Shown in pieces: positions 38,471 through 57,726 of a stretch of DNA of 64,000 nt. The notes below the pieces were generated by a model. That model did no database searches. It was given only the letters and a program-made list of their open reading frames with translations, and was not told the origin of the DNA. Source of the DNA: a virus (lineage: Duplodnaviria > Caudoviricetes); the IMG/VR virus record IMGVR_UViG_3300028048_000040, positions 64,001 to 128,000 of that record; one strand, written 5' to 3'. Position 1 is the first letter of the stretch, and every line of letters begins with the position of its first letter. The translations under genes and the position numbers were made by a program.

Positions 38471-40090
38471 ATGAATTATAATTATGAAGGAAAGGTAACA
38501 TGGCATGATTTATCTCGTCCTATTCAAGAACTATTAAAAGGATATCAAGATAAGATAAACAATGTTGCTAAATCTGTAGAAGATCTTAAAGCTTATATGG
38601 AAGATAAGCTTAATAATGAGATTAATAAGCTTAAAGATGATCAAGCTAATCTAGAAGGTTTATTGGAACAAGAAAAACAAGAACGTATGACTAAAGACCA
38701 AGAATTAGAAGATTTAATATCTCAATTTGCTAGTTCTAATCTAGGTCTAGAAGGTGCTAAAGGTCAAGTAGTAAGAACCAATGCTACTGGTAAACCATTA
38801 TATGCAGATGATCATTTCTTTGTATTAAGGGCAACAGCTTCTGATGAAGGTGTAGGAGTTTTAAAAGGAATAACTCCTATTACATTAGAAGATGTATTTA
38901 ATAATTGGGAACGTAATGCGTATATGGCAGATAAAGGAGCAGGTTCTGGTGGTACTAATGATACTGCTAGTGCTAAAAGTAAATGGAGCTATGATGCTGG
39001 AGTAAAAGGTATAAGAAATAATGGTAACTGGAATGCTGTTGGCTCATTTGGTTCTGTTTTAAAATACGATAATTTTTGGATTAAGATGTCTATGAATTCT
39101 ATGACTGGCAATGATGATGACGTTATTGGCTTCTATCCAGCATATGTATCAGCAGAAGATTCTCCCGATGGTCAAATTCATAATATTGCTGCTATTAGAA
39201 TTGGTAATATTGCCCATCAATGGAATTATTATCCAGGAAACTTTGTATTAGTATATGACTTTGGTTTGAGTACTGAAATTGTATTAGCATATGTAGATAG
39301 AACTATTATGCCAGATACTATGTGGAAATCTAATTATTATACTTCTCTTTATGTATATCGTAAAGGTGGTACTATTAAAGCATGGTCTAATAATCCTCAA
39401 ACTAATAGAACTCAAACGTATTTAGAAGATCCTGGAGAATATATAGAATGGTCCCTTCCTAAAACTAATCCTGGTTGGAGTACAGCTTCCTATGACATTA
39501 TGAAACAAATGCTTGATGGTATTTGTAAAGTAGGTTTTATGACTTGCTCTAATGATTGTCGTTTTTATTTAGATGATCAAAAACACTTATTTGAAGATCC
39601 TACAATATATGATATCAATAAAGGTGTCATATATGAATATGATATGGAAAATGGTGTTTATAAAGCAGCTGCCGATATGGGAGAAGAAGAAATACCATGG
39701 AGATCATTGCTATATAACCCATTAACTGAAGAACTATTCTGGTATAAATATCCTGGAGACTATACTAAAGTAAAAATAGGTGGTGGTAGTTCAAGCTCTG
39801 GATCATCTAATGGTGGAGTAGGATTCCCTGATTGGAATAATCAAACAACTATGACACATAATGTTGAAAATACTATTGATGAAAATGGTTGGATACTTTG
39901 GATAAATAGATTGACTACTAATACTAATGGAAATTTATATATTAATGGTACGCAGGTTACATTTTTAGCAAATCAAGCAACAAATATGTATACTTCTGAA
40001 TCAACAGTATTTGTTCCAGTAAAAGTTGGAGATGTGGTAAGATCAGTAGGACAATCTCCAACAACATTTATATTTATGCCATTTATATAA
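38471..40090 (+). CDS. Tail fibre / receptor-binding protein, K(I/V)TW..L.P family
   Basis: Shared N-terminal motif plus coiled coil; central domain shared with 52859-54898. Confidence 0.65.
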   Translation: MNYNYEGKVTWHDLSRPIQELLKGYQDKINNVAKSVEDLKAYMEDKLNNEINKLKDDQANLEGLLEQEKQERMTKDQELEDLISQFASSNLGLEGAKGQVVRTNATGKPLYADDHFFVLRATASDEGVGVLKGITPITLEDVFNNWERNAYMADKGAGSGGTNDTASAKSKWSYDAGVKGIRNNGNWNAVGSFGSVLKYDNFWIKMSMNSMTGNDDDVIGFYPAYVSAEDSPDGQIHNIAAIRIGNIAHQWNYYPGNFVLVYDFGLSTEIVLAYVDRTIMPDTMWKSNYYTSLYVYRKGGTIKAWSNNPQTNRTQTYLEDPGEYIEWSLPKTNPGWSTASYDIMKQMLDGICKVGFMTCSNDCRFYLDDQKHLFEDPTIYDINKGVIYEYDMENGVYKAAADMGEEEIPWRSLLYNPLTEELFWYKYPGDYTKVKIGGGSSSSGSSNGGVGFPDWNNQTTMTHNVENTIDENGWILWINRLTTNTNGNLYINGTQVTFLANQATNMYTSESTVFVPVKVGDVVRSVGQSPTTFIFMPFI

Positions 40091-42937: not shown

Positions 42938-43024
42938 GTTTAAAGACTAGAGGGAAACCTTTAGTCTTTATTTTTTGTTTTAAATACTTTATAATAAGTA
43001 CTAGAAGGAGGTAGAAGAAATCTT

Positions 43025-45481
43025 ATGGCATTTAATAAAGAAAATAAAATAACATGGGAAGAACTAAGTCCTTCCCTACAAGAAGTGTTTAAAGGTTTAC
43101 AAACTCAAATCACTAAAGAAACCGAAGAACGTGTAAAAGCTGATAATGAGTTATATGACGCATTAGCTTTACTTGAAGATAAATTGGTTAATCTAGGTAA
43201 ACAAATTGACTTGGTTAGAGGTGCATCTTTCAAATCATGGTCAATTCGTTTGTGGGAAAATCACCATATCTTCACAGATCTGTCATTCTATGAAACTCAT
43301 GATGTTCAGCAGTCTGGTGTTACTAACAAGATCACAGATAAAAGATATAACTGTATCTTTGGTATTATGAGTGGTCAGATTAATATTAATGGTGAACATC
43401 CAGGTTGGATTAAACATCAACAGCCATTTACTGGTCCTGATGGTGTAAGAAGAGTATATCTTGGTTGTGGTATTGCTATATCTGGTGGTGCATCTGTATA
43501 CAGATCAGATAAACAGGGATTAGACTTTAATAGAGTTGCTATTCTTGGAGGAAAAGCAATATGGGACTTCTGTGATGCAAGTTCTATTGGTGCTGGTTTA
43601 TTGGCTATTACATATAGCCCATGTGCGGTATATCAATCATTCGATGGAGTCAACTGGACTAAAGTTTTAACTCCTGGTGGTAATGTTAAAACTCTGTGTT
43701 TATTTAATGGTAGAGTTTTATGTGTAATTCCTGGAACCACTTATTATAGCTCTAATGGTACTAACTGGAGTTCTGTTGGTGGTAATGGATTAGGTGGTGG
43801 CTATAGCTACTCAAGATATTATGCTGGTAAGAGGGTATATATTGGCCAAGCTAATAGTGATTATGGAGGAAGAATATCAGTATCTACTGATCCAGATGGT
43901 TTTCATTATGAAAAATTAAAATATCCAAATGGAACTGTATGGAGTACAGGTAATGCTTATGTGAGATGGATTTGTTCTTGGCAACCAGCAAATTATAATG
44001 GTAAAGAATTAATTTGTTGGGGCACTGGTAATACTGGAACAGGTAACAGTCGTGCTGAATTATGGTGTTGGGATGAAACAGATGGTTCTATTTCATTATT
44101 ATATGACTTTAATGGAAAAGATAATTATAACGTAACTAAACCATCTTTGAATCATGGCCATGCTCCTATTGAACCTATGATGGAGACTTCTGCTGGTTCT
44201 AATAAGTATGTTCTTACTGGATTTAGAGAAAGTCAAATTAGATACATAGAGCCATTTGTTAATGACTATACTGGAGAATCATTCCTACTTGTTGGTACTT
44301 CTGATTGTTATTTTTATAACCACCTTAAAGATAAAGATCTTTATTATCAGCTCCATAATTATACTACTCATGTATCTGAACCTCTTCTTAATGATTCCGG
44401 TGAAAAAGTTTCGTGGAAGAAACTTGATAAAGAAGCATGGCATATGACTGATACTAGTCATTTTGTACAAGGTGAACAAGTTCAATATGGAGATTTTATG
44501 GGTAATGTATATGCTGTATCTCCTAGAGATGAGACTAAACCATTTAGAAAAGATGATCTCTGTATAGCTCTTATTAAACATACTGAAGATACTCGTGTAT
44601 ACTCAATGTCTGTATTTACAGATCCTCAGAATGTTAAATGGGCTTATGTAGGAACTGGTGGAGGTAATTACTCTGGTAAAGGTCTACTTTATAGATTTGG
44701 TTATTCTGATATGCTTAATCTTATAGAAGCTGCTAAAATTGGTGCTATTTATCCTCCAAAATGGTCTAGACTTGGTACTGGTAAAGATGGTGTAAATACT
44801 AGACTTGTTCAGTTATCTACTCGTTCTTTTCTTAAAGTTATGGGTGGTGTATCTGCTAGAGATAACTATGTTGAATTTAAGTTTGCTTTTAATAAGAAAT
44901 TCTTAAAATCTTCTGGCACTAACAGAGAACCATATATCAAACTTATTTTCAATCACCATGATACAGCAAATAACTATTCTATTATATATTATCCTCTTAC
45001 TAATACAATCAATTGTATGAGAAAAGAGAATAATGTAGATTTCCCAGTTCCAACAGTTCAAGGGAAAAAGACATTCTATACAACTAAACCATTTGATCTT
45101 TGGGAAACTACTGATATGGAAGAAGGTTCAGAATCTCCAATCATGGGCCCATATTATATTCTAGCAGCAAAAGTAAATCCAGGATTGATGGATCCAAATG
45201 CTCAAATGAGTGAAGATATTTATCCAAATCAGGACCTTGATGGTAGTATAGATTTCTATTTCAGAAAATCTAATAACCGTCAAGAACATTGTACAGATGG
45301 TGATAGAATAGCTAGTTGGACAATTGACTATGCTGGAGGTGAAAGAAAGCATATAGGTAACTATGGTTTTGAAACATTCGATATTAATGGTCTAGTTTTC
45401 ATATCAATGCATCAGATGTCTCTTGCTAGATATGAAAAAGATGCAATGGAGGATGGAGAAATTGTCTTTACAGTCAGCTAA
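43025..45481 (+). CDS. Tail fibre / receptor-binding protein with a probable beta-propeller (BNR-like repeats)
   Basis: KITWEELSPSLQE N-terminus; SFDGVNW and SSNGTNW Asp-box-like motifs. Confidence 0.65.
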   Translation: MAFNKENKITWEELSPSLQEVFKGLQTQITKETEERVKADNELYDALALLEDKLVNLGKQIDLVRGASFKSWSIRLWENHHIFTDLSFYETHDVQQSGVTNKITDKRYNCIFGIMSGQININGEHPGWIKHQQPFTGPDGVRRVYLGCGIAISGGASVYRSDKQGLDFNRVAILGGKAIWDFCDASSIGAGLLAITYSPCAVYQSFDGVNWTKVLTPGGNVKTLCLFNGRVLCVIPGTTYYSSNGTNWSSVGGNGLGGGYSYSRYYAGKRVYIGQANSDYGGRISVSTDPDGFHYEKLKYPNGTVWSTGNAYVRWICSWQPANYNGKELICWGTGNTGTGNSRAELWCWDETDGSISLLYDFNGKDNYNVTKPSLNHGHAPIEPMMETSAGSNKYVLTGFRESQIRYIEPFVNDYTGESFLLVGTSDCYFYNHLKDKDLYYQLHNYTTHVSEPLLNDSGEKVSWKKLDKEAWHMTDTSHFVQGEQVQYGDFMGNVYAVSPRDETKPFRKDDLCIALIKHTEDTRVYSMSVFTDPQNVKWAYVGTGGGNYSGKGLLYRFGYSDMLNLIEAAKIGAIYPPKWSRLGTGKDGVNTRLVQLSTRSFLKVMGGVSARDNYVEFKFAFNKKFLKSSGTNREPYIKLIFNHHDTANNYSIIYYPLTNTINCMRKENNVDFPVPTVQGKKTFYTTKPFDLWETTDMEEGSESPIMGPYYILAAKVNPGLMDPNAQMSEDIYPNQDLDGSIDFYFRKSNNRQEHCTDGDRIASWTIDYAGGERKHIGNYGFETFDINGLVFISMHQMSLARYEKDAMEDGEIVFTVS

Positions 45482-46136
45482 TCTTAATGGTATTAAAGTC
45501 TTAATGACTACTACCAGAAATGAATTAAAAAAACTAAATATTCCTAATTCAAGATTGTTTACTAATGATAGGGGCTATGGTGCAATCTACTATTCTGAAG
45601 TAACTAAAAATACTTATATTGGATGCTGTACTGTAGAACCTCCTGATTTAATTATGGCCACTAAAGAAGAGATTCCTGATTTTATTAAAGATCATATCTT
45701 TAGTTGTGCTACAGAAGATGTATTGAGTATGCATGATGTTAGACTCAAACGTAGATTAAATCGATTAGATATTGAATGGGAAGTAGAAAAAGAGTTTGAT
45801 GAGTCTGAACAACTTAAAAACTTTATGAATGCTACTAAGAATAAACCACAGTTTGTTCTAAGAAGAATGTCTACTGCTGCTGATAAGTTTGCTGATAAAT
45901 ATGGTATTAATATTAAGACCACTCATTTTGATGCAGATGGAAAAATGGCAATAGATTATTATGATTTTAATAATAGATATGTAGTATCATATGATGTATT
46001 TGGAATTACTGATGACGGTAGACTTCAATTGTATTATGTAAGATGGTATGATAAACCATCACTTCAGTATGTAGAAGATCATTTCGAGAATGATCCTAAT
46101 ATTGTTAAAGTTGGTGCTATTGAATTTATTATCTGA
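45423..46136 (+). CDS. Hypothetical protein
   Basis: ORF overlapping the previous stop. Confidence 0.7.
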   Translation: MLDMKKMQWRMEKLSLQSANLNGIKVLMTTTRNELKKLNIPNSRLFTNDRGYGAIYYSEVTKNTYIGCCTVEPPDLIMATKEEIPDFIKDHIFSCATEDVLSMHDVRLKRRLNRLDIEWEVEKEFDESEQLKNFMNATKNKPQFVLRRMSTAADKFADKYGINIKTTHFDADGKMAIDYYDFNNRYVVSYDVFGITDDGRLQLYYVRWYDKPSLQYVEDHFENDPNIVKVGAIEFII

Positions 46137-46152
46137 ATAGGGGGAAATTAAT

Positions 46153-47133
46153 ATGAAAAATAAAGGACTATATGCTATAGTCTTTGCTGTATTGGTTGCT
46201 ATATTTGGATATGCTGGTTATCAGGTATCCCAAGATCAACCTATACCAGTTATTCAGCAAACTGAACAGAAAACTATTCAAGTTAAGCATGAATCTGGTA
46301 TAACAGAAGTTAAAGTAAATCCACAGAGAATTGTAGTATTAGACTTTGGTATATTAGATACATTGGATACGCTTGGAGTAGAACCAGAAATGATTGCTAC
46401 TGCCAAACAGTATACTCCAAAATATCTATCTAAATATACGGGAGATAATGTTCAAGATGTAGGTCATCTTAAAGAACCTTCTCTTGAAAAACTAGCAGAA
46501 CTAAAACCAGATCTGATTATCATGTCTGGTAGACAGCGTCCATATTATGATAAACTTGCTGAGATAGCACCAACTATCAATTTATCTGTTGCAAATGAAG
46601 GATATCTTGATGCTCTTCATCAGCAGATGACTATTCTTGGTCAAATCTTCCAGAAAGAAGAGAAAGCAGAACAAGAATTTCAATCTCTTAAATCTGAAAT
46701 TCTGAAAACCAGAGAACAAGCTCAAGCATCTGGTAAGAAATCCCTTATGCTGATTACTGTTGGTAATAAGCTTAATGCTTATGGACCTGGTATGAGATTT
46801 GGTTTCTTATATGATGAATCTTCTCTTCATCTTCCTACTGTAATGGAAAAATCTGATTCTATCGGTGTTCAGTCTCCTGGTGGCAAAGTAATCTCTTATG
46901 AGTATATTAAAGAGAAAGACCCAGACTATATCATGATTATTGATCGTAATGCTGCTACTAATCAGGGTGGTGTAACAGCAAAAGATCTATTAGATGTAGA
47001 TATCATTAAATCTACTAAAGCATATAAGAATGATAAAATTATATATGTAACTCCAGATTTGTGGTATCTGGCCAATAATGGATATACTGGTACTTTGTTG
47101 ATGCTTAGAGAGATTCAGGATGCTATTAAGTAA
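46153..47133 (+). CDS. Iron-siderophore ABC transporter substrate-binding protein (YclQ/CeuE-like)
   Basis: NPQRIVVLDFGILDTL, VGHLKEPSLE, KPDLIIMSGRQ, SYEYIKEKDPD, WYLA. Confidence 0.92.
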   Translation: MKNKGLYAIVFAVLVAIFGYAGYQVSQDQPIPVIQQTEQKTIQVKHESGITEVKVNPQRIVVLDFGILDTLDTLGVEPEMIATAKQYTPKYLSKYTGDNVQDVGHLKEPSLEKLAELKPDLIIMSGRQRPYYDKLAEIAPTINLSVANEGYLDALHQQMTILGQIFQKEEKAEQEFQSLKSEILKTREQAQASGKKSLMLITVGNKLNAYGPGMRFGFLYDESSLHLPTVMEKSDSIGVQSPGGKVISYEYIKEKDPDYIMIIDRNAATNQGGVTAKDLLDVDIIKSTKAYKNDKIIYVTPDLWYLANNGYTGTLLMLREIQDAIK

Positions 47134-47148
47134 GGTAAAGGTGAGAAC

Positions 47149-48333
47149 ATGAATAAAAAATTAATTGCCTTGAGTGTAGGTCTAGCCTTTTCTATGAATT
47201 CTTCTATAGTATTAGCTTCTAATGAAGATAAGAAGATTGATGAAGCTGCTGCTAAGTTAACTGAAGAACCAGCTAAAGAAATGGCTCAAGAGGTAAAACC
47301 ACTTACTACAGAAGAAAGAATTGCTCAGTTAGAAAAAGAAATCCAAGAACTTAAAGAAGCTAATCTTAATAATAATAAAGAGATAAAGAAAACCAATGAT
47401 AAGATTAAGAAAGAAGACGAAAGACTTCATTTCTTTGCTACTGGTCAGGTTGCTTTATCTGGAGCTAAAGAAGAAGGAAAAGAATTCGAAGATACTGGTT
47501 CCGCATTGAAATTAAATTTTGGTGCTAGAGCTAAGCTTAATGACAATTGGACTTTCTCTTGGCTTACTAAGTCTTCTCAGGCTTTTAGAAATACTGGAGA
47601 TAGAGGTACTCAGAATACTACAAATATTTATCTAAGTGGTAAAGATCTTCTCACTAAAGGAGATAGTCTTACTTTTGGTAAATATAGAAATGATGAGCTG
47701 TCTTTGCAGCAAGTTGGTAAATCAGAACAGACTGGTCTTAAATATACCATTCCTTTTGGTAAAGAGAAAGATACTTCTCTTACATTAATAGCTGGTAGAC
47801 TTGGTACTGGTAAACCATCAACTTTCTTAAACCCAGTAATTGCCAATGCATCTGATAATGCTAATTATAGAGCTGCTATTATTCAGCATAACTTTGGTCA
47901 TACTAAAGTAGCTTTAGCTTATCGCAGAGCATCTGCTATGAATGCTGTCAATGGTTATGAATTATATACTCAATTCCCAATTTCTGGTAAATTGAGTGGT
48001 AGATATTCATACTATAAAACAGATGCTGATGATACTGGAACTACTGGTAATGCTGGTCAGTATGCTGCACTGTATTGGGGTGAATTTAAACGTGGTACAG
48101 CTCATAGTGCAGACTGGTATATCAAATTCTATCACTCTCCTAAATATTCTATGATTGATGGTGAAAATCCAAAATATGCAGATTATAATATCTGGAAGAT
48201 TGGTGGTACTTGGTCATTCACTAAGAATATTTGGTTAGAATATAATTACTCTATCTTTAATAGAATGGGTGGAGCTTCTAATAAGCTGACTAATAAACAG
48301 ACTGTGGGTGCTACACTTAAATTCTCTATTTAA
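47149..48333 (+). CDS. Exported porin-like beta-barrel protein with an N-terminal coiled coil
   Basis: Signal peptide; RIAQLEKEIQELK coiled coil; alternating beta strands; C-terminal GATLKFSI. Confidence 0.65.
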   Translation: MNKKLIALSVGLAFSMNSSIVLASNEDKKIDEAAAKLTEEPAKEMAQEVKPLTTEERIAQLEKEIQELKEANLNNNKEIKKTNDKIKKEDERLHFFATGQVALSGAKEEGKEFEDTGSALKLNFGARAKLNDNWTFSWLTKSSQAFRNTGDRGTQNTTNIYLSGKDLLTKGDSLTFGKYRNDELSLQQVGKSEQTGLKYTIPFGKEKDTSLTLIAGRLGTGKPSTFLNPVIANASDNANYRAAIIQHNFGHTKVALAYRRASAMNAVNGYELYTQFPISGKLSGRYSYYKTDADDTGTTGNAGQYAALYWGEFKRGTAHSADWYIKFYHSPKYSMIDGENPKYADYNIWKIGGTWSFTKNIWLEYNYSIFNRMGGASNKLTNKQTVGATLKFSI

Positions 48334-48339
48334 TTATAG

Positions 48340-48368
48340 ACCCTCTACCTCTATAGAGGTAGAGGGGT
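48340..48368 (+). terminator. Intra-operon hairpin
   Basis: CCCTCTACCTC-TATA-GAGGTAGAGGG. Confidence 0.65.
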
Positions 48369-48387
48369 TATTAAAGAAGGTGATTAT

Positions 48388-49311
48388 GTGAATAAAAAAA
48401 TGATGTCGTCACTTGTTTTATTAGCATCTTTATCTATTCTATCTATATTTATAGGAGTACATGATTTTACATATGAGATATTGATAGAAAGTAGAATACC
48501 TAGACTAATGGCTGTACTTCTTACTGGTGTAGGAATGGGCATAGCTGGTTTGATAATGATGCAAATATCTCAAAACAAATTTGCTTCTCCATCTACTACT
48601 GGTACAATAGAGTGTGCTGGTTTAGGAATAATATTATGTACTGCATTTCTACCAGAGACTAAGATATTTTATAAACTGTTTATCATCTTTGGTATGGCTA
48701 TGATAGGTACTAAGATATTTACAACTATTTTAGATAGAATAGTATTTAAAGATACTATGTTTATACCATTGATAGGTATCATGTATGGTCATATCATATC
48801 TGCAATAACTACAATGATAGCATATGATCAAAACCTACTCCAAGAACTTAGTATTTGGTTTGCTGGTGATTTCTCTGCTATTCTACATGGAAAATATGAA
48901 TTACTATATGCAATTATACCTGCAGTAATAGTTGCTTATATATATGCTAATGCTTTAACTATTATAGGATTTGGTCAAGATTTCTCTGAGAATCTTGGGT
49001 TATCTTATAATAAGATTAAAAATATAGGTTTGTTTATAGTTGCTTTCTTAGTAGCTTCTATAGTAACAGTAGTAGGACAAATACCATTCATAGGATTGAT
49101 CATACCAAATATCATCACTCTTATTAATGGAGACAATATAAAATCTAATCTACCATATATAGCAATCTATGGAGCTATATATGTATTGATTTGTGATATA
49201 CTAAGTAGAATACTGATATTCCCATATGAATTATCTGTATCTCTAATATCTGGTCTATTTGGTAGTATAATCTTTATGTATCTAATCTTAAGGGGGAAGA
49301 ACAATGCATGA
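48388..49311 (+). CDS. FecCD-family iron ABC permease (YclN/CeuB-like)
   Basis: SRIPRL, QNKFASPST, VGQIPFIGLIIPN, CDILSR. Confidence 0.92.
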   Translation: MNKKMMSSLVLLASLSILSIFIGVHDFTYEILIESRIPRLMAVLLTGVGMGIAGLIMMQISQNKFASPSTTGTIECAGLGIILCTAFLPETKIFYKLFIIFGMAMIGTKIFTTILDRIVFKDTMFIPLIGIMYGHIISAITTMIAYDQNLLQELSIWFAGDFSAILHGKYELLYAIIPAVIVAYIYANALTIIGFGQDFSENLGLSYNKIKNIGLFIVAFLVASIVTVVGQIPFIGLIIPNIITLINGDNIKSNLPYIAIYGAIYVLICDILSRILIFPYELSVSLISGLFGSIIFMYLILRGKNNA

Positions 49312-50266
49312 TTTTAAAACCATTTTCTATACCTCTATAGTTTTAGTTATTTCGACTTCTTTATTCTTCTTCTATGATCTTAAAGAGTCTATCTATGTAT
49401 ATTCTCTTAATATGAGATTAGGTCAAATGATTGGTATTCTATTAATAGGATATGCTATAGCTATTTCTTCAGTATTATTTCAATCTATTACTAATAATAA
49501 AATTCTTACTCCATCTATATTAGGATTCAATTCTCTATATCTGATGATTCAATCTCTAGTAATATGGTTATTTAGTGATACTAAGCCAAATTTCTGGTCT
49601 GTAAATGAATTCTTTGCATTTAGTGTAATATTAATGATAGGATTCAGCTTTATACTGTATAAACTACTATTCAAATCTTCAGTAAAGAATATATACTTTA
49701 TTCTATTAGCAGGAGTTGTATGTGGTACTGTATTTAGTTCTATATCTTCATTTATTAATAGACTTATAGAAACAGATAGATTTCAACTATTTCAGCTTAA
49801 AGCATATGCTAACTTTGACTTAATTCAATCTAATCTATTACCAATATCAATAGTACTAATTCTGTTATGCTCGTATATTGTGTATAGAAAGATACCTGAA
49901 TTAGATGTATATCTGATTGGTTCAGATAATGCTAAGATGTTAGGAATTGATATAGATAGACTACAGATTGTATCTCTTTGTGTTATATCTGTAATGGTAT
50001 CTATATCTACAGTATTAGTTGGTCCTATTACATTCTTAGGATTAATAGTGTCTAATATAGCATATACTCTTCTTAGAAGTTATTCTCTTAGATATATATT
50101 CCCACTATCTATTATATTATCATGGATTATTTTATCTATAGGATTGATTATTACTCAAAGAATAGCAACATTTGATCTTAATCTTACTATGTTGATAAAT
50201 GCATTTGGTGGAATATACTTTATCTATTTATTGATATGGGGGTCTTCTAATGATAAGAATAAGTAA
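49304..50266 (+). CDS. FecCD-family iron ABC permease (YclO/CeuC-like)
   Basis: FQSITNNKILTPSILG, LVGPITFLGL, GGIYFIYLL. Confidence 0.92.
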   Translation: MHDFKTIFYTSIVLVISTSLFFFYDLKESIYVYSLNMRLGQMIGILLIGYAIAISSVLFQSITNNKILTPSILGFNSLYLMIQSLVIWLFSDTKPNFWSVNEFFAFSVILMIGFSFILYKLLFKSSVKNIYFILLAGVVCGTVFSSISSFINRLIETDRFQLFQLKAYANFDLIQSNLLPISIVLILLCSYIVYRKIPELDVYLIGSDNAKMLGIDIDRLQIVSLCVISVMVSISTVLVGPITFLGLIVSNIAYTLLRSYSLRYIFPLSIILSWIILSIGLIITQRIATFDLNLTMLINAFGGIYFIYLLIWGSSNDKNK

Positions 50267-51005
50267 TGTTACTAAAGCGTATAAGAATAATCTAGTATTG
50301 GACAGTGTATCTGTTTCTATTCCTAATTCTAAATTTGTATCTCTTATTGGTCCTAATGGATGTGGTAAGTCTACTCTTATAAATTGTATATGTAGTCTTA
50401 TAGACTATGATGGTCATATATTTATAGATGAAGTTCCTATTAAATCTATTCCTAAAAAAGAACTAGCAAAGAAAATATCTCTTCTTAAACAAAATTCATT
50501 TCATGATCTAAAGATCACTTCTAAAGAATTAATATCTTTTGGTAGATTTCCATATTCTAATGGTAATCTTACTAAAGAAGATGATAAGAAGATAGAAGAA
50601 GTTATACAGTTCTTAGAATTAGATTCATTACAATCTAAATATATCACTGAACTATCTGGCGGAGAAAGACAAAGAGTTTATATAGGAATGATGTTAGCTC
50701 AAGATACAGAATATATGATATTAGATGAGCCACTAAATAATCTAGATATGAAGAATTCTAAACACATTATGTCTCTATTAAAGAAATTTGTAGAAGAGAA
50801 GAAGAAAACAGTCATATTAGTAGTACATGACATAAACTTCGCTTCTATGTATTCAGATGAGATAATAGCAATTAAAGATCATGATATCTTTGCTAGTGGT
50901 AAAACTAAAGCTATAATCAATGAAGATGTGCTTACTTCTATTTATGATACACCTATTAGAGTAACTAATACAGATATAGGTATATTGTGTAACTTTTATA
51001 AATAA
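50250..51005 (+). CDS. Iron ABC transporter ATP-binding protein (YclP/CeuD-like)
   Basis: GPNGCGKST, FGRFPYS, LSGGERQR, LDEPLNNLD, HDINFA. Confidence 0.95.
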   Translation: MIRISNVTKAYKNNLVLDSVSVSIPNSKFVSLIGPNGCGKSTLINCICSLIDYDGHIFIDEVPIKSIPKKELAKKISLLKQNSFHDLKITSKELISFGRFPYSNGNLTKEDDKKIEEVIQFLELDSLQSKYITELSGGERQRVYIGMMLAQDTEYMILDEPLNNLDMKNSKHIMSLLKKFVEEKKKTVILVVHDINFASMYSDEIIAIKDHDIFASGKTKAIINEDVLTSIYDTPIRVTNTDIGILCNFYK

Positions 51006-51076
51006 ATTATTCCCTAGGAGTTTGCTCCTAGGGAATTCACATTTTGATAATAGAAATATGAATGGGGGATGGATAT

Positions 51077-51961
51077 ATGTCAACATATACAGCTGACGAT
51101 AGAATATATTGGGAATTAATATCTCCTTCAGTCCAAGAACTCTTTAAGACTATTCAGTCTGAGTTTAATTTCTTTAATAGAAGATTACTAGATGAAATAG
51201 CTAGAGCTAAAGCTGCAGAAGATATATTGAAAGATAATCTAGATAAAAAGATAAAAGAACTCTTTGGTTTAGATGGTGGAGAAAAAGGACAAGTCTTAAG
51301 AACAAATAGATCTGGTCTTAGTCTATATTGCGATGACCATTGTTTCTTAGTACAGAAAAACTTAGATATTGATCCAGATTTCTTTTACAACTATGATTTT
51401 ACTACTGGTAAAGCATTAGATTCAAATAACAATCTTATAGATTTGCCATGGAGATCATTTTATTATAATCCTAAATCACAAAAGTTTTGGTGGTATAAAT
51501 TTCCTAATGATTTTACTGAAATCAAAGTTACTTTCTCTAGTGCAGATGAGGTCGATGATTCTCAAGGTGCTACTGGTGTTATGGAACTATTAGATATGGG
51601 AACAGATTTCTATGATGGTAAATTAAGATACTATAAAATATATACTAATGGATGGTGTGAACAAGGTGGCTCTTATGCTCATGTAACTAAAAATGCAGAA
51701 GATCCAACTCAGTTCGTCAATGCCAATTCTAGATATGTTCCATTAAAGAAACCATATCAAGATGCAAAATATATTATAACTTTATCACAAGAATTTTGTG
51801 AACTACCTAATGGTTATAGTCATAATAACAAAGCTGTTAGTATATTAGATCTCTATCCAGATAAGATATTAGCTGTAGCTGATGCTAGTAACTATATGCC
51901 TTATAGTAGTTATAGAACTGAAGGTTTTGTTGACTTAGTTGCATTAGGTTACAAGAGTTAA
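51077..51961 (+). CDS. Short tail-fibre family paralogue
   Basis: RIYWELISPSVQELFK N-terminus; C-terminal YTNGWCEQGG domain; late-type motif at 51039-51050. Confidence 0.65.
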   Translation: MSTYTADDRIYWELISPSVQELFKTIQSEFNFFNRRLLDEIARAKAAEDILKDNLDKKIKELFGLDGGEKGQVLRTNRSGLSLYCDDHCFLVQKNLDIDPDFFYNYDFTTGKALDSNNNLIDLPWRSFYYNPKSQKFWWYKFPNDFTEIKVTFSSADEVDDSQGATGVMELLDMGTDFYDGKLRYYKIYTNGWCEQGGSYAHVTKNAEDPTQFVNANSRYVPLKKPYQDAKYIITLSQEFCELPNGYSHNNKAVSILDLYPDKILAVADASNYMPYSSYRTEGFVDLVALGYKS

Positions 51962-51976
51962 TAGGAGAAGGTAATT

Positions 51977-52852
51977 ATGTTTGAGAGAGAAGATAAAATA
52001 ACATGGTATGAGCTAGATCCTAATGTGCAAAGCTTATTCTTAGGATTAGAAACTCAAAGAGATAATGCTAGACAAGCTCTTAATGATGAAATTGCCAGAG
52101 AAACTAAAGCAACAGATGATATTATAGCATCTATAGATACTATGAAATCTGATCAATTTGGTTTGGCTGGTATAAGAGGTCAAGTTGTAAAGTATGGTGG
52201 TAGTGGTCAACCATTATATGCAGATGATCATTTCTTTAAAATAGAAAAAGACATGGGAGTAGATCCTGCTATATTTTATGAATATGATATGGATACTGGT
52301 TTTTATACTACTATAAATGGAGTACAAAAAGAATTACCTCCTAGATCTTTCTTATATGAAGATTCTAGTGAAAGATTATGGTATTATGTAAAACCAGGTA
52401 AGTATTTTAAAATAAAAGAAAGATATAGTAAAGTTACAGATTCATCTACTGTATTCACTAATGCTAATCTTTATGATAGCGGTTTTGATACTTATGATCA
52501 ACACGTAAGATATTTTAAAATATATGATAATGGTTGGTGTGAACAGGTTGGTGGTTATTCTCATTATCAACATGATCTTAGTAAACCAGATGATTGGATA
52601 TATTACTACAGCAGATATGTAACTTTTGCTGTTCCATATAAAGATACAAATTATGTAGTCACTCTTGGCGGTGAAATATGGCCAAAAACTCCAGATCTAT
52701 GTTCTCATGGTTATGGTACATTTAAAAAATTCCCAGAAAAAATGCAAGTATCAATTTGTGGAAATAAGGTAAATACACACTGGAGATTTTCCACATATCA
52801 TGTTGCTGGATTTATTGACTTAGATGCTTATAAGCAAAGTAAAAAACCATAA
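51977..52852 (+). CDS. Short tail-fibre family paralogue
   Basis: KITWYELDPNVQ; YDNGWCEQVG. Confidence 0.65.
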   Translation: MFEREDKITWYELDPNVQSLFLGLETQRDNARQALNDEIARETKATDDIIASIDTMKSDQFGLAGIRGQVVKYGGSGQPLYADDHFFKIEKDMGVDPAIFYEYDMDTGFYTTINGVQKELPPRSFLYEDSSERLWYYVKPGKYFKIKERYSKVTDSSTVFTNANLYDSGFDTYDQHVRYFKIYDNGWCEQVGGYSHYQHDLSKPDDWIYYYSRYVTFAVPYKDTNYVVTLGGEIWPKTPDLCSHGYGTFKKFPEKMQVSICGNKVNTHWRFSTYHVAGFIDLDAYKQSKKP

Positions 52853-52858
52853 GGTGGG

Positions 52859-54898
52859 GTGAATAATAATATGAATTTTGAAGATAACGTATCTTGGGAA
52901 GAATTTTCCCCATCTTTAAAAGAAAAATTTCAAGGATTGCAATCTGATATTACTACACTAGAAGAAGATTTAGAACAGCACATAAAAGACGCTAAAGCTA
53001 AAGAAGCTTTAGTTCAACAAGAAATAGATGATTTTAATCTAGATGATTGGAATTTAGCCGGTGCTAAAGGACAAGTAGTAAGGACAGATATAGTTGGTGG
53101 AGAACTATATTCAGATGATTATTTCTTTAACTTAAGAGCTATTACTAGTCCTACTACAAAAGAAGATATACAGGATCAAGATCTTATTACTCTTAAAGAA
53201 GTATGTGCTACTTGGGATAGAAGATCTTGGGGATCTGCTTTTGGTGCTAATGACTTAGATAGTGCTAAAAATAGTTGGCTTTATAGAGATGATATTAAAG
53301 CTATTGCTAATCGTGGTAATTGGAATTCAGTTGGTTCTTTTGGTTCTACAAAAAAATATGACTTTTTCTGGATAAAAATGTCTATGAATTCAGTAGAACC
53401 AAATTTTGTTGATGATGACTGGATTGGATTTATTCCTATATATTTAGATGAGAATGAGTCTCCTGATGGTCAAATTCATACTATTATGGTTGGTAGAGTT
53501 GGAAATTCAGCTCAGCAATGGAATCAATATCCTGGCAATTTCTGTTTAATATATGATTTTGGAAAACCTACTCAAATTATATTAGATTATATACCTAGAT
53601 CTGTATTTGGCAATACTTTATGGAAAAAAGGATGGTATACATCTTTATATGTATATCGTAAAGGTGGTAATATTCAAGCAGCTTCTAGCAATCCACAACA
53701 AACTAGACAACAAGATTATCTTATGGATGACGGTCAATATATTAACTGGAATTTGCCAAAGAACAATCCTGGTTGGCCATCTGCTTCTTGGGATATTATA
53801 TGTCAAATGATGGATGGCCCTGCTAAGATTGGTTTCTGGACTTGCTCTAATGACTGCTTATTCTATCTAGATGATCAGAAACATCTTTGGAGACCAAATG
53901 ATATCATAGTAGACTTTAATACTATTTATGAATATGACTTTAAGACTGGTAAATATTTAGATGGTAGATCTCTCACAGTAGAAGATATACCTCTAAGATC
54001 TTTTGTCTATAACAATCTAACGGAACAACTATTCTGGTATAAACAACCAGGTCAATTTGTTGATATAAAGAAATCATTCGTTGTAGATCCTACTACAGAT
54101 AAAACTAATAGTAGTGGTCCTTTTGGTTTAATAGATTCTGGTTATGATGAATATGATGGTCATTTAAGATACTTCCGTGTGTATACTAATGGATGGTGTG
54201 AACAAGGAGGTTATTTCTCCCATGTTAAAAGTGAAATGACCGATCCTTCTCTATGGGTTAGTACGTCAAGAATATATGTAAAATTTAAGATTCCATTCAA
54301 ATCAGCAGATTATTTAGTCACATATGCTAATCATGCAGCGTCTGTTAGTACTGGTCCAAACTGGTCTATAGCATTAGTAGAAAAGAAATTAGATAGAATG
54401 TTATGTGGTAATAGTACGGCATCTAAAGGTTCATTCTATCATGCTGAAGGATATGTAGATTTGAATACATATAAAGATCAACCTCAACAACCAGTACAAC
54501 CACAGCCACAACCTGTAAATACTGTTAAAACTTGCTATAATATGGGAGAAAATAATTTAGACTATGCTTATCCTTATCCAGGTCTTGTTCTTGGATATAT
54601 TATAACTGTTCCAAATAACGTATCGAAAATATTAGGTTATTATAATATTCCAAATTCTAGTAGTGCAAAATGGGTAGATAAGCCATCTTCTGGTACAATG
54701 TATACATTTTCTAATCAACCAACTGTTACTCCAGGTCAAACAATCTATGTTATAGGTCCATTCCATAATTCTAAACATGCAGATGGTTATGTAGGATCTA
54801 CAAACTATTATTTTGATAATTCTTTTTATAGTGGAGAAATATTCTTTATACCAGTTTCTCAAATGAGTAATGTATTTGGTCTTTTAGCTTTTGGTTAA
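52859..54898 (+). CDS. Long tail-fibre family paralogue
   Basis: VSWEEFSPSLKE; central domain as in 38471; YTNGWCEQGG; QP linker and an extra C-terminal domain. Confidence 0.65.
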   Translation: MNNNMNFEDNVSWEEFSPSLKEKFQGLQSDITTLEEDLEQHIKDAKAKEALVQQEIDDFNLDDWNLAGAKGQVVRTDIVGGELYSDDYFFNLRAITSPTTKEDIQDQDLITLKEVCATWDRRSWGSAFGANDLDSAKNSWLYRDDIKAIANRGNWNSVGSFGSTKKYDFFWIKMSMNSVEPNFVDDDWIGFIPIYLDENESPDGQIHTIMVGRVGNSAQQWNQYPGNFCLIYDFGKPTQIILDYIPRSVFGNTLWKKGWYTSLYVYRKGGNIQAASSNPQQTRQQDYLMDDGQYINWNLPKNNPGWPSASWDIICQMMDGPAKIGFWTCSNDCLFYLDDQKHLWRPNDIIVDFNTIYEYDFKTGKYLDGRSLTVEDIPLRSFVYNNLTEQLFWYKQPGQFVDIKKSFVVDPTTDKTNSSGPFGLIDSGYDEYDGHLRYFRVYTNGWCEQGGYFSHVKSEMTDPSLWVSTSRIYVKFKIPFKSADYLVTYANHAASVSTGPNWSIALVEKKLDRMLCGNSTASKGSFYHAEGYVDLNTYKDQPQQPVQPQPQPVNTVKTCYNMGENNLDYAYPYPGLVLGYIITVPNNVSKILGYYNIPNSSSAKWVDKPSSGTMYTFSNQPTVTPGQTIYVIGPFHNSKHADGYVGSTNYYFDNSFYSGEIFFIPVSQMSNVFGLLAFG

Positions 54899-54922
54899 TA
54901 TAAATTAAAGGAGGTTATAAAG

Positions 54923-55522
54923 ATGAGAGAAGTAGACTTAACAGAACTGATGGATAATGCATATGCTTCTAAGTGGAACTTAGAACGAAAAGCAGCAGCT
55001 AATGGAAGAGATGTACAAATCTTCTTACATTGGACTGCTTGTCCTTATGGTAGATATTATCCTGGTTATCATGTTAATATTGATGATGATGGTACTATAA
55101 TTTTAACTGCTGATTTAGATGAGACTCTATCTCATACATATATGAGAAACTCTGGTTCTATTGGATTGACTCTATGTTGTTGCTATAATGCTACTACTGA
55201 CGATCCTGGTCCTCAACCACCTACACAAATACAGATTGAAACTATGGCTAAATGTATTGCAGTATTATCGGAAGCATTAGATATTCCTATAGATAAACAA
55301 CATGTACTTACTCATGGTGAAATTGCTGATTGTGAAGATGGATCACCAATCTATTTTGATGGTAAATACGGCCCAAAAACAGATTGCCAACGCTGGGATT
55401 TGGAGGTCTTATGGACAGATGAATCCCCTGTATTTAATCCTTATGATGAAGAACATAGGGGTGGAACTATATTACGTGGAAAAGGCAATTTCTATAAATA
55501 TAAATTCTATGGTCATTACTAA
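54923..55522 (+). CDS. N-acetylmuramoyl-L-alanine amidase (Amidase_2-like), candidate endolysin
   Basis: FLHWTA, YHVNIDDDG, SHTYMRNSGSIG, VLTHGE. Confidence 0.8.
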   Translation: MREVDLTELMDNAYASKWNLERKAAANGRDVQIFLHWTACPYGRYYPGYHVNIDDDGTIILTADLDETLSHTYMRNSGSIGLTLCCCYNATTDDPGPQPPTQIQIETMAKCIAVLSEALDIPIDKQHVLTHGEIADCEDGSPIYFDGKYGPKTDCQRWDLEVLWTDESPVFNPYDEEHRGGTILRGKGNFYKYKFYGHY

Positions 55523-55557
55523 AATTACCAGGATAGCTCATATGAGCTATCCTATTG

Positions 55558-56172
55558 TTATAAAGAATATGAAATAACTGGAAAAAATCCCTGATATGCT
55601 GAACCATAATTTTTAACAGCACCATTTTTATCTAGACATATACCATTTTTTTTAGGATAATATATATAACTATTGCTATCATTTCCATTATAATTATAAG
55701 ATCTGCCAATTTCAGTATATATTCTAATCTCTGTTTCATTAGTATGATTATCTTGATATGATACTGAATATGCCATGCTATTACTATATCTATAAGAATA
55801 TTCTGAAATGAATCCATTTATTGTTGAGCCACGATTTGACAGATATCGCATCGTTGCTAATCTATTAATTTTAGTCTTAGTCCCATGAAGCCTTATATAT
55901 TCTGAGCGTAATATAAACCATTTATTATTATGGAATGCATTTGAGGGATAATTTTCCTTTTTATTATCCCATAATTTATCAGCGTTCCAAGGAATAATTA
56001 CTTTAAATATAGCTTCATCTACACTAATTAGTCTTATTTTAGTATTGGGAGTTCTATTATTTTCAATTCTTTTATTAAAGCTTTCATTTATATCTCTTTT
56101 AGTTATATTAAACTTAGACTGCAATTGGTCTAGCAGCCTAAGTGCCTCTTCCTTAGTAGTAGGTTCATTCAT
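55558..56172 (-). CDS. Palindrome-associated paralogue 1, putative C-type-lectin-fold (DUF6273-like) protein
   Basis: RLISVDEA...WFILRS...GFFPVI; GGAGG RBS. Confidence 0.65.
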   Translation of the reverse strand: MNEPTTKEEALRLLDQLQSKFNITKRDINESFNKRIENNRTPNTKIRLISVDEAIFKVIIPWNADKLWDNKKENYPSNAFHNNKWFILRSEYIRLHGTKTKINRLATMRYLSNRGSTINGFISEYSYRYSNSMAYSVSYQDNHTNETEIRIYTEIGRSYNYNGNDSNSYIYYPKKNGICLDKNGAVKNYGSAYQGFFPVISYSL

Positions 56173-56198
56173 TTATATCTCCTCCAATAAATTGTTTC

Positions 56199-56232
56199 TA
56201 CTTAGTTAAGTGGACATCCACTTAACTAAGTA
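56199..56232. repeat. Palindrome copy 1: 16-bp arms, core CA on plus strand
   Basis: TACTTAGTTAAGTGGA-CA-TCCACTTAACTAAGTA. Confidence 0.97.
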
Positions 56233-56299
56233 AATAGATTGTTTTGATTAAAGATAGATATTAATAATAAATCTTCCTAGGGGATTATTCCCCTAGGAA

Positions 56300-56947
56300 T
56301 TATACTTTAAAACATGGTACAAATGTAAGAATTTGTTGAAAATGTAGTGTGTGAGATTTATAGTTATATGATATTACATTTGTTATCTCATTTAAATAAG
56401 ATGATTTATTTGAAGATGATGGTTCTATCATAGTACCTTCCCTACCTCCAACCCATGTTATATAATAAGTAAAAATTAGTGTTCCATTTATAATATTATT
56501 ATTATTAGATGAATTTTGCACAAGCAATCTACTAAATTTCCAATAAGTATTACCGCTAGCATTTGGTTCTGGTTTCTTTAAATTTTGAGAAATATCATTA
56601 TAATAATTTGTCTGGTATCCTGGTTTATTATAATTTGTTGTATTAATATCACCACAAGTTGGTATTATTGTATTATCAATGTTGTTACCATTTTTTTTAA
56701 TTGATAATTGTCCACCATAATAATATCTAGTACCTATTATATTATTTAACGTATCGTTTAACATATATTTTTTATATTTATTATTAGCTTCATTCCACAC
56801 TAGACAACATATAGTCTGTTTGTCTGATTTGTCAGTCAAATTAAAATCAGATCCAGCTTGTAAGTAATCCCCATTTTTTATTCCAAAAGATTTAGCTAAT
56901 GAAGTCATTAATTGTAAAGCTTCATCTTTATTTTTAGGATCATTCAT
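56300..56947 (-). CDS. Palindrome-associated paralogue 2
   Basis: N-terminus resembles paralogue 1 (MN.P..K.EAL.L); TICCLV..EA and TLHFQQ..TFVPCFK shared with paralogue 3. Confidence 0.75.
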   Translation of the reverse strand: MNDPKNKDEALQLMTSLAKSFGIKNGDYLQAGSDFNLTDKSDKQTICCLVWNEANNKYKKYMLNDTLNNIIGTRYYYGGQLSIKKNGNNIDNTIIPTCGDINTTNYNKPGYQTNYYNDISQNLKKPEPNASGNTYWKFSRLLVQNSSNNNNIINGTLIFTYYITWVGGREGTMIEPSSSNKSSYLNEITNVISYNYKSHTLHFQQILTFVPCFKV

Positions 56948-56972
56948 TTACAGTTCCTCCAATCAATAGATC

Positions 56973-57014
56973 TATCTACTTAGTTAAGTGGACATCCACT
57001 TAACTAAGTAGATA
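56973..57014. repeat. Palindrome copy 2: 20-bp arms, core CA on plus strand
   Basis: TATCTACTTAGTTAAGTGGA-CA-TCCACTTAACTAAGTAGATA. Confidence 0.97.
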
Positions 57015-57063
57015 ATTCAATCGAAAGAATATAGGATAGCTCATATGAGCTATCATCCTATAT

Positions 57064-57726
57064 TTAAAATTTAAAACAAGGAACAAATGTAGCTAATTGT
57101 TGAAAATGTAATGTGTAATTAATAGAAGATGAACCCCACTTTTGTGATATATCTAAAATAAATGACTGCTTATCAAATTCGCATATTTTATTTTGATTAT
57201 TAATCAAAAAAGATGCTATATCACTACCACCAGCTCTATTAAAAACAGCTTTTATAGATGATAATTGGTTGTTTACATTAAAAGAACTATTTTTAGAATC
57301 TTGGTTTATAATTCTGGTAAATTTTAGGTATGAATCACTACCAGAAATATAATTTTCACCAATACCACCATTACTATTATATACATTGTATTCTTGTGTA
57401 AATCCTGGTTTGTTTATATTATCATCTTGAACATGACCACAATTATCAATAATAGTGCCTTGAGATAAAACCTTACCATTTTGTGCATTTCTGATATAAT
57501 TGCAATTATAATAATACCACCTATTACCAGTTATAGTATTTACAGTATCATTTTTCATATATTGTTTATATTTATTATGGGCTTCATCTGATACTAGACA
57601 GCATATGGTTACTTTACTTGCATTTTCATTATTTACATTTATATTATTTTGTAATATTTCTCTATTTGTTATTCCATTTTCTTTCATCAATGATAGTATC
57701 TGATCAATGATATTTGATTTGCTCAC
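57064..57726 (-). CDS. Palindrome-associated paralogue 3
   Basis: GTG start with GGAGG RBS; clear similarity to paralogue 2. Confidence 0.75.
   Translation of the reverse strand: MSKSNIIDQILSLMKENGITNREILQNNINVNNENASKVTICCLVSDEAHNKYKQYMKNDTVNTITGNRWYYYNCNYIRNAQNGKVLSQGTIIDNCGHVQDDNINKPGFTQEYNVYNSNGGIGENYISGSDSYLKFTRIINQDSKNSSFNVNNQLSSIKAVFNRAGGSDIASFLINNQNKICEFDKQSFILDISQKWGSSSINYTLHFQQLATFVPCFKF

Follow-up and report, generated by a model that had tools for sequence, protein, structure and literature searches.

Phage genes for nutrient uptake, such as cyanophage pstS, are host-type genes that the phage has kept, and they usually supply a single component, either a binding protein or an ATPase. 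Phages can also carry porins: Lc of the temperate coliphage PA-2 and NmpC of the DLP12 prophage are OmpC-like products of lysogenic-conversion genes. Among bacterial importers, the closest described systems to the one reported here are the CeuBCDE importer of Campylobacter jejuni and the YclNOPQ importer of Bacillus subtilis, type II ATP-binding cassette (ABC) systems of the catecholate/petrobactin kind. Each pairs a class III substrate-binding protein (SBP), a member of the CeuE/YclQ family, with two FecCD permeases and a single ABC ATPase. The closest described porin is OmpM1 of Veillonella parvula (PDB 8bym/8bys), which combines a 16-strand barrel with a triple coiled-coil stalk and an SLH domain and acts both as an outer-membrane tether and as a general porin, the OmpM paralogues being the sole general porins in Veillonella (PMC10628300). 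Here we analyse a locus in a 64,000-nucleotide stretch of DNA (the window), which represents bases 64001–128000 of the 342,328-bp virus record IMGVR_UViG_3300028048_000040. The record, rated complete by CheckV, is an uncultured jumbo phage from a bovine gut sample. At 46153–51005 of the window, within a cluster of tail-fibre genes, are five intact genes encoding an SBP, a 394-residue porin, two FecCD permeases and an ABC ATPase. On balance, we favour the reading that the phage runs its own TonB-independent uptake of a ferric-catecholate-type chelate through the outer and inner membranes of a diderm host. The locus belongs to a known kind, the phage auxiliary uptake genes; what is new is the complete importer together with a phage-specific porin family. 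Literature searches turned up no report of an OmpM-like porin from a phage, of a complete phage siderophore or FecCD importer, or of transporters in rumen jumbo phages. The PHROGs database includes ABC ATPase morons annotated as 'ABC transporter' (phrog_293, phrog_2392 and phrog_12197) and an unannotated FecCD-like family; unlike these and unlike pstS, the locus supplies every inner-membrane part as well as a channel for the outer membrane, and the set is inherited as a whole across a phage clade.

Families were assigned using Pfam and NCBIfam. Coordinates are window positions, and all the genes and motifs given below are on the plus strand unless stated otherwise. The CeuE/YclQ-type SBP (46153–47133; Peripla_BP_2, PF01497) is followed by the OmpM-like stalked porin, which lacks an SLH domain (47149–48333, identified from its AlphaFold2 model), FecCD permease 1, which has a GTG start (48388–49311; PF01032, E value 3e-60), FecCD permease 2 (49304–50266; PF01032, E value 1e-46) and the ATPase (50250–51005; ABC_tran). 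Each permease has 9–10 hydrophobic segments, consistent with the roughly 10 membrane helices of the FecCD type, and the ATPase has all its catalytic motifs, with Walker A, the Q-loop, the LSGGE/Q signature, Walker B with its glutamate and the H-loop at residues 34, 79, 135, 155 and 191, respectively. The FecCD pair and the complete ATPase motifs place the system among the type II (BtuCD/FecCD-type) ABC importers. An earlier reading of the sequence alone (the original prediction) had described these five genes as intact, which they are, and as having overlapping stops and starts. The latter holds for permease 1/permease 2 (8 nt) and permease 2/ATPase (17 nt) but not for the starts of the other three genes: spacers of 15–16 nt with ribosome sites precede the SBP and porin genes, and 54 nt precede permease 1. 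The order of the genes, SBP–porin–permease–permease–ATPase (or, with a fibre gene and its partner inserted, SBP–fibre–partner–porin and so on), differs from that in the bacterial loci L010 and L011, where it is permease–permease–ATPase–SBP.

The SBP matches PF01497 over residues 60–302 with an E value of 1.8e-30. Its closest solved relatives are a Geobacillus CeuE homologue (8b7x, E value 8e-72), YclQ (3gfv, 3e-58) and CeuE (2chu, 6e-54), and others include Parageobacillus CeuE homologues, VctP, PiuA-type proteins and BauB. In alignments, Arg127, Arg215 and Arg265 fall at the CeuE motifs SGRQ, RFG and DR and show little or no variation among 13 sequences; the basic triad of CeuE, which we take to be Arg118, Arg205 and Arg249 in its numbering, binds the catecholate oxygens. 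Tyr305 sits in an invariant WY motif at the position of CeuE Tyr288. The arginine triad and the iron-binding tyrosine are thus features that the phage protein has in common with CeuBCDE and YclNOPQ. It differs from them in having no lipobox cysteine and no iron-binding histidine, in being at most 45% identical to any bacterial homologue, and in that the importer is phage-encoded behind a phage promoter motif. There is a single N-terminal hydrophobic segment and no cysteine anywhere in the protein, which is therefore no lipoprotein, in agreement with the earlier description of a hydrophobic anchor without a lipobox. The assignment to the catechol-siderophore type of YclNOPQ and CeuBCDE, also made in the original prediction, stands as regards sequence; it does not extend to gene order, and only one of the pair of iron-ligand residues is present. 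The NCBIfam scores all lie far under the equivalog cut-offs (for SstD, 160 compared with 450 bits). Judged by its sequence, the protein nevertheless belongs in the CeuE/YclQ family despite one missing defining ligand residue, and an SBP of this kind without the histidine broadens the known chemistry of the family.

The porin gene product has no Pfam match. The call of a porin, first made from the sequence, is upheld by the AlphaFold2 model (predicted local distance difference test score, pLDDT, 75.8), which has a signal peptide, a helix at residues 54–90 and 16 strands, and for which the best structural match is OmpM1, at approximately 15% identity. The nearest clusters in the Atlas are SLH-domain porins of Bacillota, with a template modelling (TM) score of about 0.7. 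Family members carry a signal peptide and a short charged linker ahead of the heptad-rich helix, then alternating strands, and finish with a hydrophobic C terminus; the N-terminal hydrophobic segment is the only one in the window protein, and just 29 or so low-confidence residues separate the signal peptide from the stalk. No SLH domain was detected by Pfam in the porin or anywhere in the phage genome, with positive results for the controls. Prediction of a trimer from three copies of residues 62–394 gave an ipSAE interface score of 0.63 (median of 3 runs; best control 0.35); when the score was calibrated, 20 of 30 solved pairs and 1 of 23 single chains attained the mark. At least 72% of the contacts were common to the runs, with a partner pLDDT of at least 82, and the contacts follow a heptad pattern along helix 64–93 and also run along the barrel walls. 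This score may reflect mere likeness to solved porin trimers.

The phage porin therefore resembles OmpM1 in its 16-strand barrel, its coiled-coil stalk helix and its predicted trimer, and differs from it in the SLH domain, without which no tethering to peptidoglycan is expected, in its low identity, and in forming a small family of its own. Only four close relatives came out of a word-based search, and HMMER, run exhaustively against 1.84 billion representatives, identified nine proteins. Every readable genomic context of the family is phage-like, and the usual place of the gene is directly before permease 1. One homologue, 27% identical, stands alone without transport genes at 1196–2290 of a 58.8-kb contig of family-less open reading frames (ORFs; contig L007). 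Like Lc and NmpC, the porin is a phage-encoded barrel of the general-porin type; unlike them, it is OmpM-like, it lies in a transport operon, and its phage has no detectable tyrosine integrase, a search of the whole phage genome having found none. We conclude that it represents a new phage-specific family, so far almost exclusive to these phages, and regard it as the most original part of the finding. OmpM is the ancestral outer-membrane tether of diderm Firmicutes, and the phage protein, with stalk and barrel kept and the wall anchor absent, is in effect a natural experiment on it.

The importer is resident in the phage genome and has been so for a long time. Contigs of a separate study (X3, Logan) cover 43025–48284 and 50414–52000 at approximately 92% identity and span both junctions, which are therefore bridged in a different strain; the chimerism that would have undermined the original prediction is not borne out by these independent assemblies. 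The same context occurs in contigs assembled separately from other samples, with SBP identities of 76–85% (L097 and L003/L004), 56% (L006) and about 44% (L008, L012 and L095), so that the genes keep the same fibre context at identities down to 44% for the SBP and 30% for the porin. The G+C content is about 30% along the whole window, with no compositional step at the importer. At third codon positions the G+C content of the five importer genes is 0.155–0.190, compared with 0.208 ± 0.061 for the genome, and their distance in relative synonymous codon usage is inside the 5–95% range of phage genes of similar length. Both values bear out the codon style that had been judged phage-like by eye.

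Nor was near-identity to a bacterial chromosomal locus found: in a search of one genome each from approximately 185,000 prokaryotic species, the best bacterial SBP match was 45% identical, and the best 80 loci are from Bacilli, Clostridia or their relatives, or from Ignatzschineria-type Gammaproteobacteria. A phylogeny against bacterial operons, as had been suggested earlier, was built from concatenated permease 1, permease 2, ATPase and SBP sequences, and the five phage operons formed one clade against 70 bacterial operons (SH-like approximate likelihood ratio test, 100), with a warning from the program about long branches and skewed composition. A single origin is also supported by independent shared characters, namely the porin gene, the lost histidine of the SBP and an insertion next to it. 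Pairwise ratios of nonsynonymous to synonymous substitution (dN/dS) are 0.11–0.20 for all five genes against both L097 and L003, indicating that the importer is under purifying selection and is maintained in the phage lineage. Shared context, monophyly, ameliorated codons and purifying selection all agree with the earlier view of a long-resident module that crosses two membranes. Identity between L097 and the window is uneven from gene to gene (permease 1 96%, porin 93%, SBP 85%, fibre 64%), which suggests recombination inside the operon. A contig from pig gut (L096, 9001–15611) has the fibre, its partner, the SBP, two permeases and the ATPase, no porin, and an Amidase_3 lysin nearby; this lineage may have a host whose envelope differs.

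The unit that contains the importer begins upstream of the SBP gene. A terminator-like hairpin with a T run (42941–42970) closes the preceding unit, and 12 bases past it is ACTTTATAATAA (42986–42997), an instance of the motif ACW-N6-TAA located 39 nt before the start codon of a fibre gene at 43025. In the whole genome, 46 of the 187 genes having a non-coding leader carry this motif 20–55 nt upstream, compared with 7 for the reverse complement and 9.2 ± 2.8 for shuffled sequences. By this distribution it looks like a phage promoter class, with assignment to a late class only putative. Further copies stand upstream of 40194 and 42237. The original prediction had seen no terminator between the fibre gene and the SBP gene, and we likewise found no terminator-like site on the plus strand between 43025 and 46153; up to the end of the porin gene there is neither a terminator nor a further copy of the motif. 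The unit is closed by a palindromic hairpin at 51009–51036, and a second ACW-N6-TAA motif (51039–51050) stands 23 nt before the next fibre gene.

A perfect 11-bp hairpin without a T run lies at 48341–48366, between the porin stop and the ribosome site of the permease, where the original prediction had placed one. It is found in the same position in five lineages (the window, L003, L006, L008 and L012) with differing stem sequences, so that what is conserved is its structure and not its sequence. In bacterial ABC operons such as malEFG, a hairpin of this kind protects or partly terminates the upstream message. By analogy, the phage hairpin probably does one or the other and would leave the SBP and the porin in excess. 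In L003 (11177–11222) the 3′ arm of the hairpin is the only purine-rich ribosome site before the permease start codon, and there the hairpin could also mask initiation of permease translation. In one bovine-gut metatranscriptome, contigs identical to the window cover the fibre gene, the junction between its 237-residue partner and the SBP gene, the SBP gene and the porin gene, and hint weakly at transcription, DNA carry-over being possible. The contigs listed for the RNA run leave a gap at 48372–50500, over the permeases; we discarded this as evidence of attenuation, as gaps prove nothing.

The fibre gene at the head of the unit (43025–45481) encodes a virion fibre-like protein of 818 residues, with an N-terminal helix module, a seven-bladed β-propeller at approximately 108–569 and a C-terminal β-sandwich. 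It is followed by a gene for its 237-residue partner (45423–46136, the true start perhaps being 45432). Upstream there is a fibre paralogue of 539 residues (38471–40090), and downstream of the importer are three variable paralogues of 299, 291 and 679 residues that share the N-terminal module (51062–54898), followed by an Amidase_2 cell-wall hydrolase, a probable endolysin, as the last gene of the fibre unit (54923–55522). The module, of 60–90 residues, is common to the ORFs starting at 38471, 43025, 51062, 51977 and 52859, which are its sole carriers in the 342-kb genome, and two of the five match a PHROG tail-fibre family. Module-bearing ORFs are thus present on both sides, and the importer lies inside a fibre cluster, flanked by tail-fibre paralogues as had been reported from the sequence.

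The linkage between fibre and importer is the most conserved feature of the neighbourhood. The 818-residue protein, whose family comprises 18 clusters, is conserved over its full length in all lineages (44–66% identity, compared with 32–58% for the partner) and accompanies the importer in every lineage examined; relatives of the fibres downstream of the importer match only in the N-terminal module. In L008, L012 and L095 the SBP gene is upstream of the fibre/partner pair, which thus lies within the transport operon. L094, a more distantly related phage, has the pair without any importer, and the linkage may be only historical. A fold search with the whole model of the 818-residue protein gave only generic β-propeller matches of low global TM score, which support no claim of enzyme activity. 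The partner gave no lead in Pfam, PHROG or the Atlas; by inference, it is possibly a fibre assembly factor. Iron-binding fibres were considered as well and are unsupported, as the five fibre proteins have only one HxH motif between them.

From these results we infer a substrate, a host, expression during infection and a benefit to the phage. The porin, as a stalked trimer without an SLH domain, would let a small iron chelate cross the outer membrane independently of TonB; the SBP, either secreted or anchored in the membrane, would catch the chelate; and the heterodimeric FecCD permease with its ATPase would move it into the cytoplasm. A phage promoter would transcribe the importer genes together with the conserved virion fibre gene, and the hairpin after the porin would keep the SBP and the porin above the levels of the permeases and the ATPase, as in bacterial ABC operons. 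The benefit would be a supply of iron to the infected cell. If this is correct, infected cells gain iron via a route controlled by the phage, and, compared with the single parts usual among phage nutrient-uptake genes, a whole two-membrane route is conserved throughout a deep clade of jumbo phages, all uncultured, from the rumen and gut. A rumen Negativicute is the probable host, to which the OmpM-like fold and the bovine-gut origin point.

Several observations weigh against this reading. Siderophores normally need TonB-dependent receptors, and a search of the phage found none encoded; a 16-strand general porin is an unusual route. The lineage L096 has the importer without the porin, and the porin is therefore dispensable to the importer. 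The position of CeuE His227 is occupied by glycine in the window SBP and by glycine or alanine in every phage lineage, next to the insertion carried by the phage SBPs, whereas the histidine is kept in Bacillota homologues, in YclQ and in CeuE (of the CeuE chains, 2chu has histidine and 5mbq alanine at this position). Because of this loss, the ligand may differ from the tetradentate catecholates of CeuE. The earlier hint of Negativicutes fits the OmpM-like fold, but there are none among the 80 best bacterial relatives of the SBP, in a search that was not centred on Negativicutes. Transcription together with virion genes would mean late expression, leaving little time for a payoff unless the infection is long. 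Finally, searches of the phage for radical SAM proteins and for the ribonucleotide reductases NrdD and NrdB were all negative; they revealed no gene with an obvious demand for iron, and iron for the phage's own enzymes is unsupported as a motive. A radical SAM gene is present in the related contig L003.

The explanation that would do away with the system altogether, namely that the module arose as an assembly chimera, is contaminating host DNA or is a recently captured, decaying passenger without a phage role, is very improbable. It is true that only one run (X1, probably the window's own source) holds the whole stretch at 100% identity, and that GenBank 'phage' records with similar SBPs look like host contigs. 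Against this, the same junctions recur at 56–92% identity in several assemblies made independently by other studies, codon use is phage-like, all the frames are intact, dN/dS is low and the closest bacterial locus is at most 45% identical. To the extent that sequence can show it, we take chimerism, contamination and decay to be excluded. A more serious possibility, though still one we consider rather unlikely, is that a real importer carries a ligand other than a classical ferric catecholate siderophore, such as iron on plant-derived rumen catechols, another metallophore or a non-iron ligand. The loss of the iron-coordinating histidine in all phage lineages with an insertion beside it, the NCBIfam scores far below the equivalog cut-offs, the suitability of a diffusion porin for small ligands, and the bovine-gut habitat would all fit this. 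What argues for a catecholate is the invariant arginine triad and tyrosine, which in CeuE hold the catecholate oxygens and the iron, and the fact that the close solved relatives all bind siderophores of the ferric-catecholate or mixed-ligand type, for example petrobactin and acinetobactin.

It is also conceivable, if doubtful, that the importer functions as described and the porin has another job. It might mix into or replace host OmpM trimers and so loosen the outer membrane for lysis, or it might take the place of this phage's own receptor, excluding superinfecting phages and keeping progeny off debris. Throughout the porin family the coiled-coil stalk is kept and the SLH domain is absent; tethering of the outer membrane is a function of OmpM paralogues, which in Veillonella are also the only general porins (PMC10628300); the gene lies in a region of host recognition and lysis, with fibres on both sides and the amidase at 54923; and porin and importer each occur without the other, in L007 and L096, respectively. 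However, where both are present the porin gene is always directly upstream of permease 1, in two gene orders, and an identity of only about 15% to OmpM1 makes co-assembly with host OmpM doubtful. Iron supply and surface remodelling, both raised in the original prediction, are only possible roles. An extended form of the iron-uptake reading, which we put forward as speculation and think unlikely in full, is that gut jumbo phages of one clade have built an iron route of their own, TonB-independent and spanning the envelope of diderm Firmicutes. In it the porin would be dedicated to the importer, and the whole would be functionally coupled to host recognition through the fibre and its partner, which are inherited and co-transcribed with the importer; the phage might, for example, act on an iron or porin receptor of the host, by targeting or blocking it, and make up for the function that is lost.

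The window encodes a DnaB-type helicase, a topoisomerase II subunit, a virion structural protein, tail-fibre-like proteins, PhoH and the Amidase_2 cell-wall hydrolase, and the phage genome has one tRNA. Matches in the genome to terminase and to PhiKZ_VTX, a phiKZ-type virion family, were weak and below the cut-offs. Among GenBank phages, neither megablast with 43000–55600 nor a protein search with the 818-residue fibre gave a match, and SBP matches in GenBank occurred only in unannotated 'phage' records that resemble host contigs. The record is classed as linear; a 62-nt string at record positions 39–100 is repeated about 38 nt before the record end, and the assembly may be circular or terminally redundant. 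On the minus strand of the window, at 55558–57726, there are three paralogous ORFs, each preceded by the same long palindrome, in which the two central bases vary among the copies.

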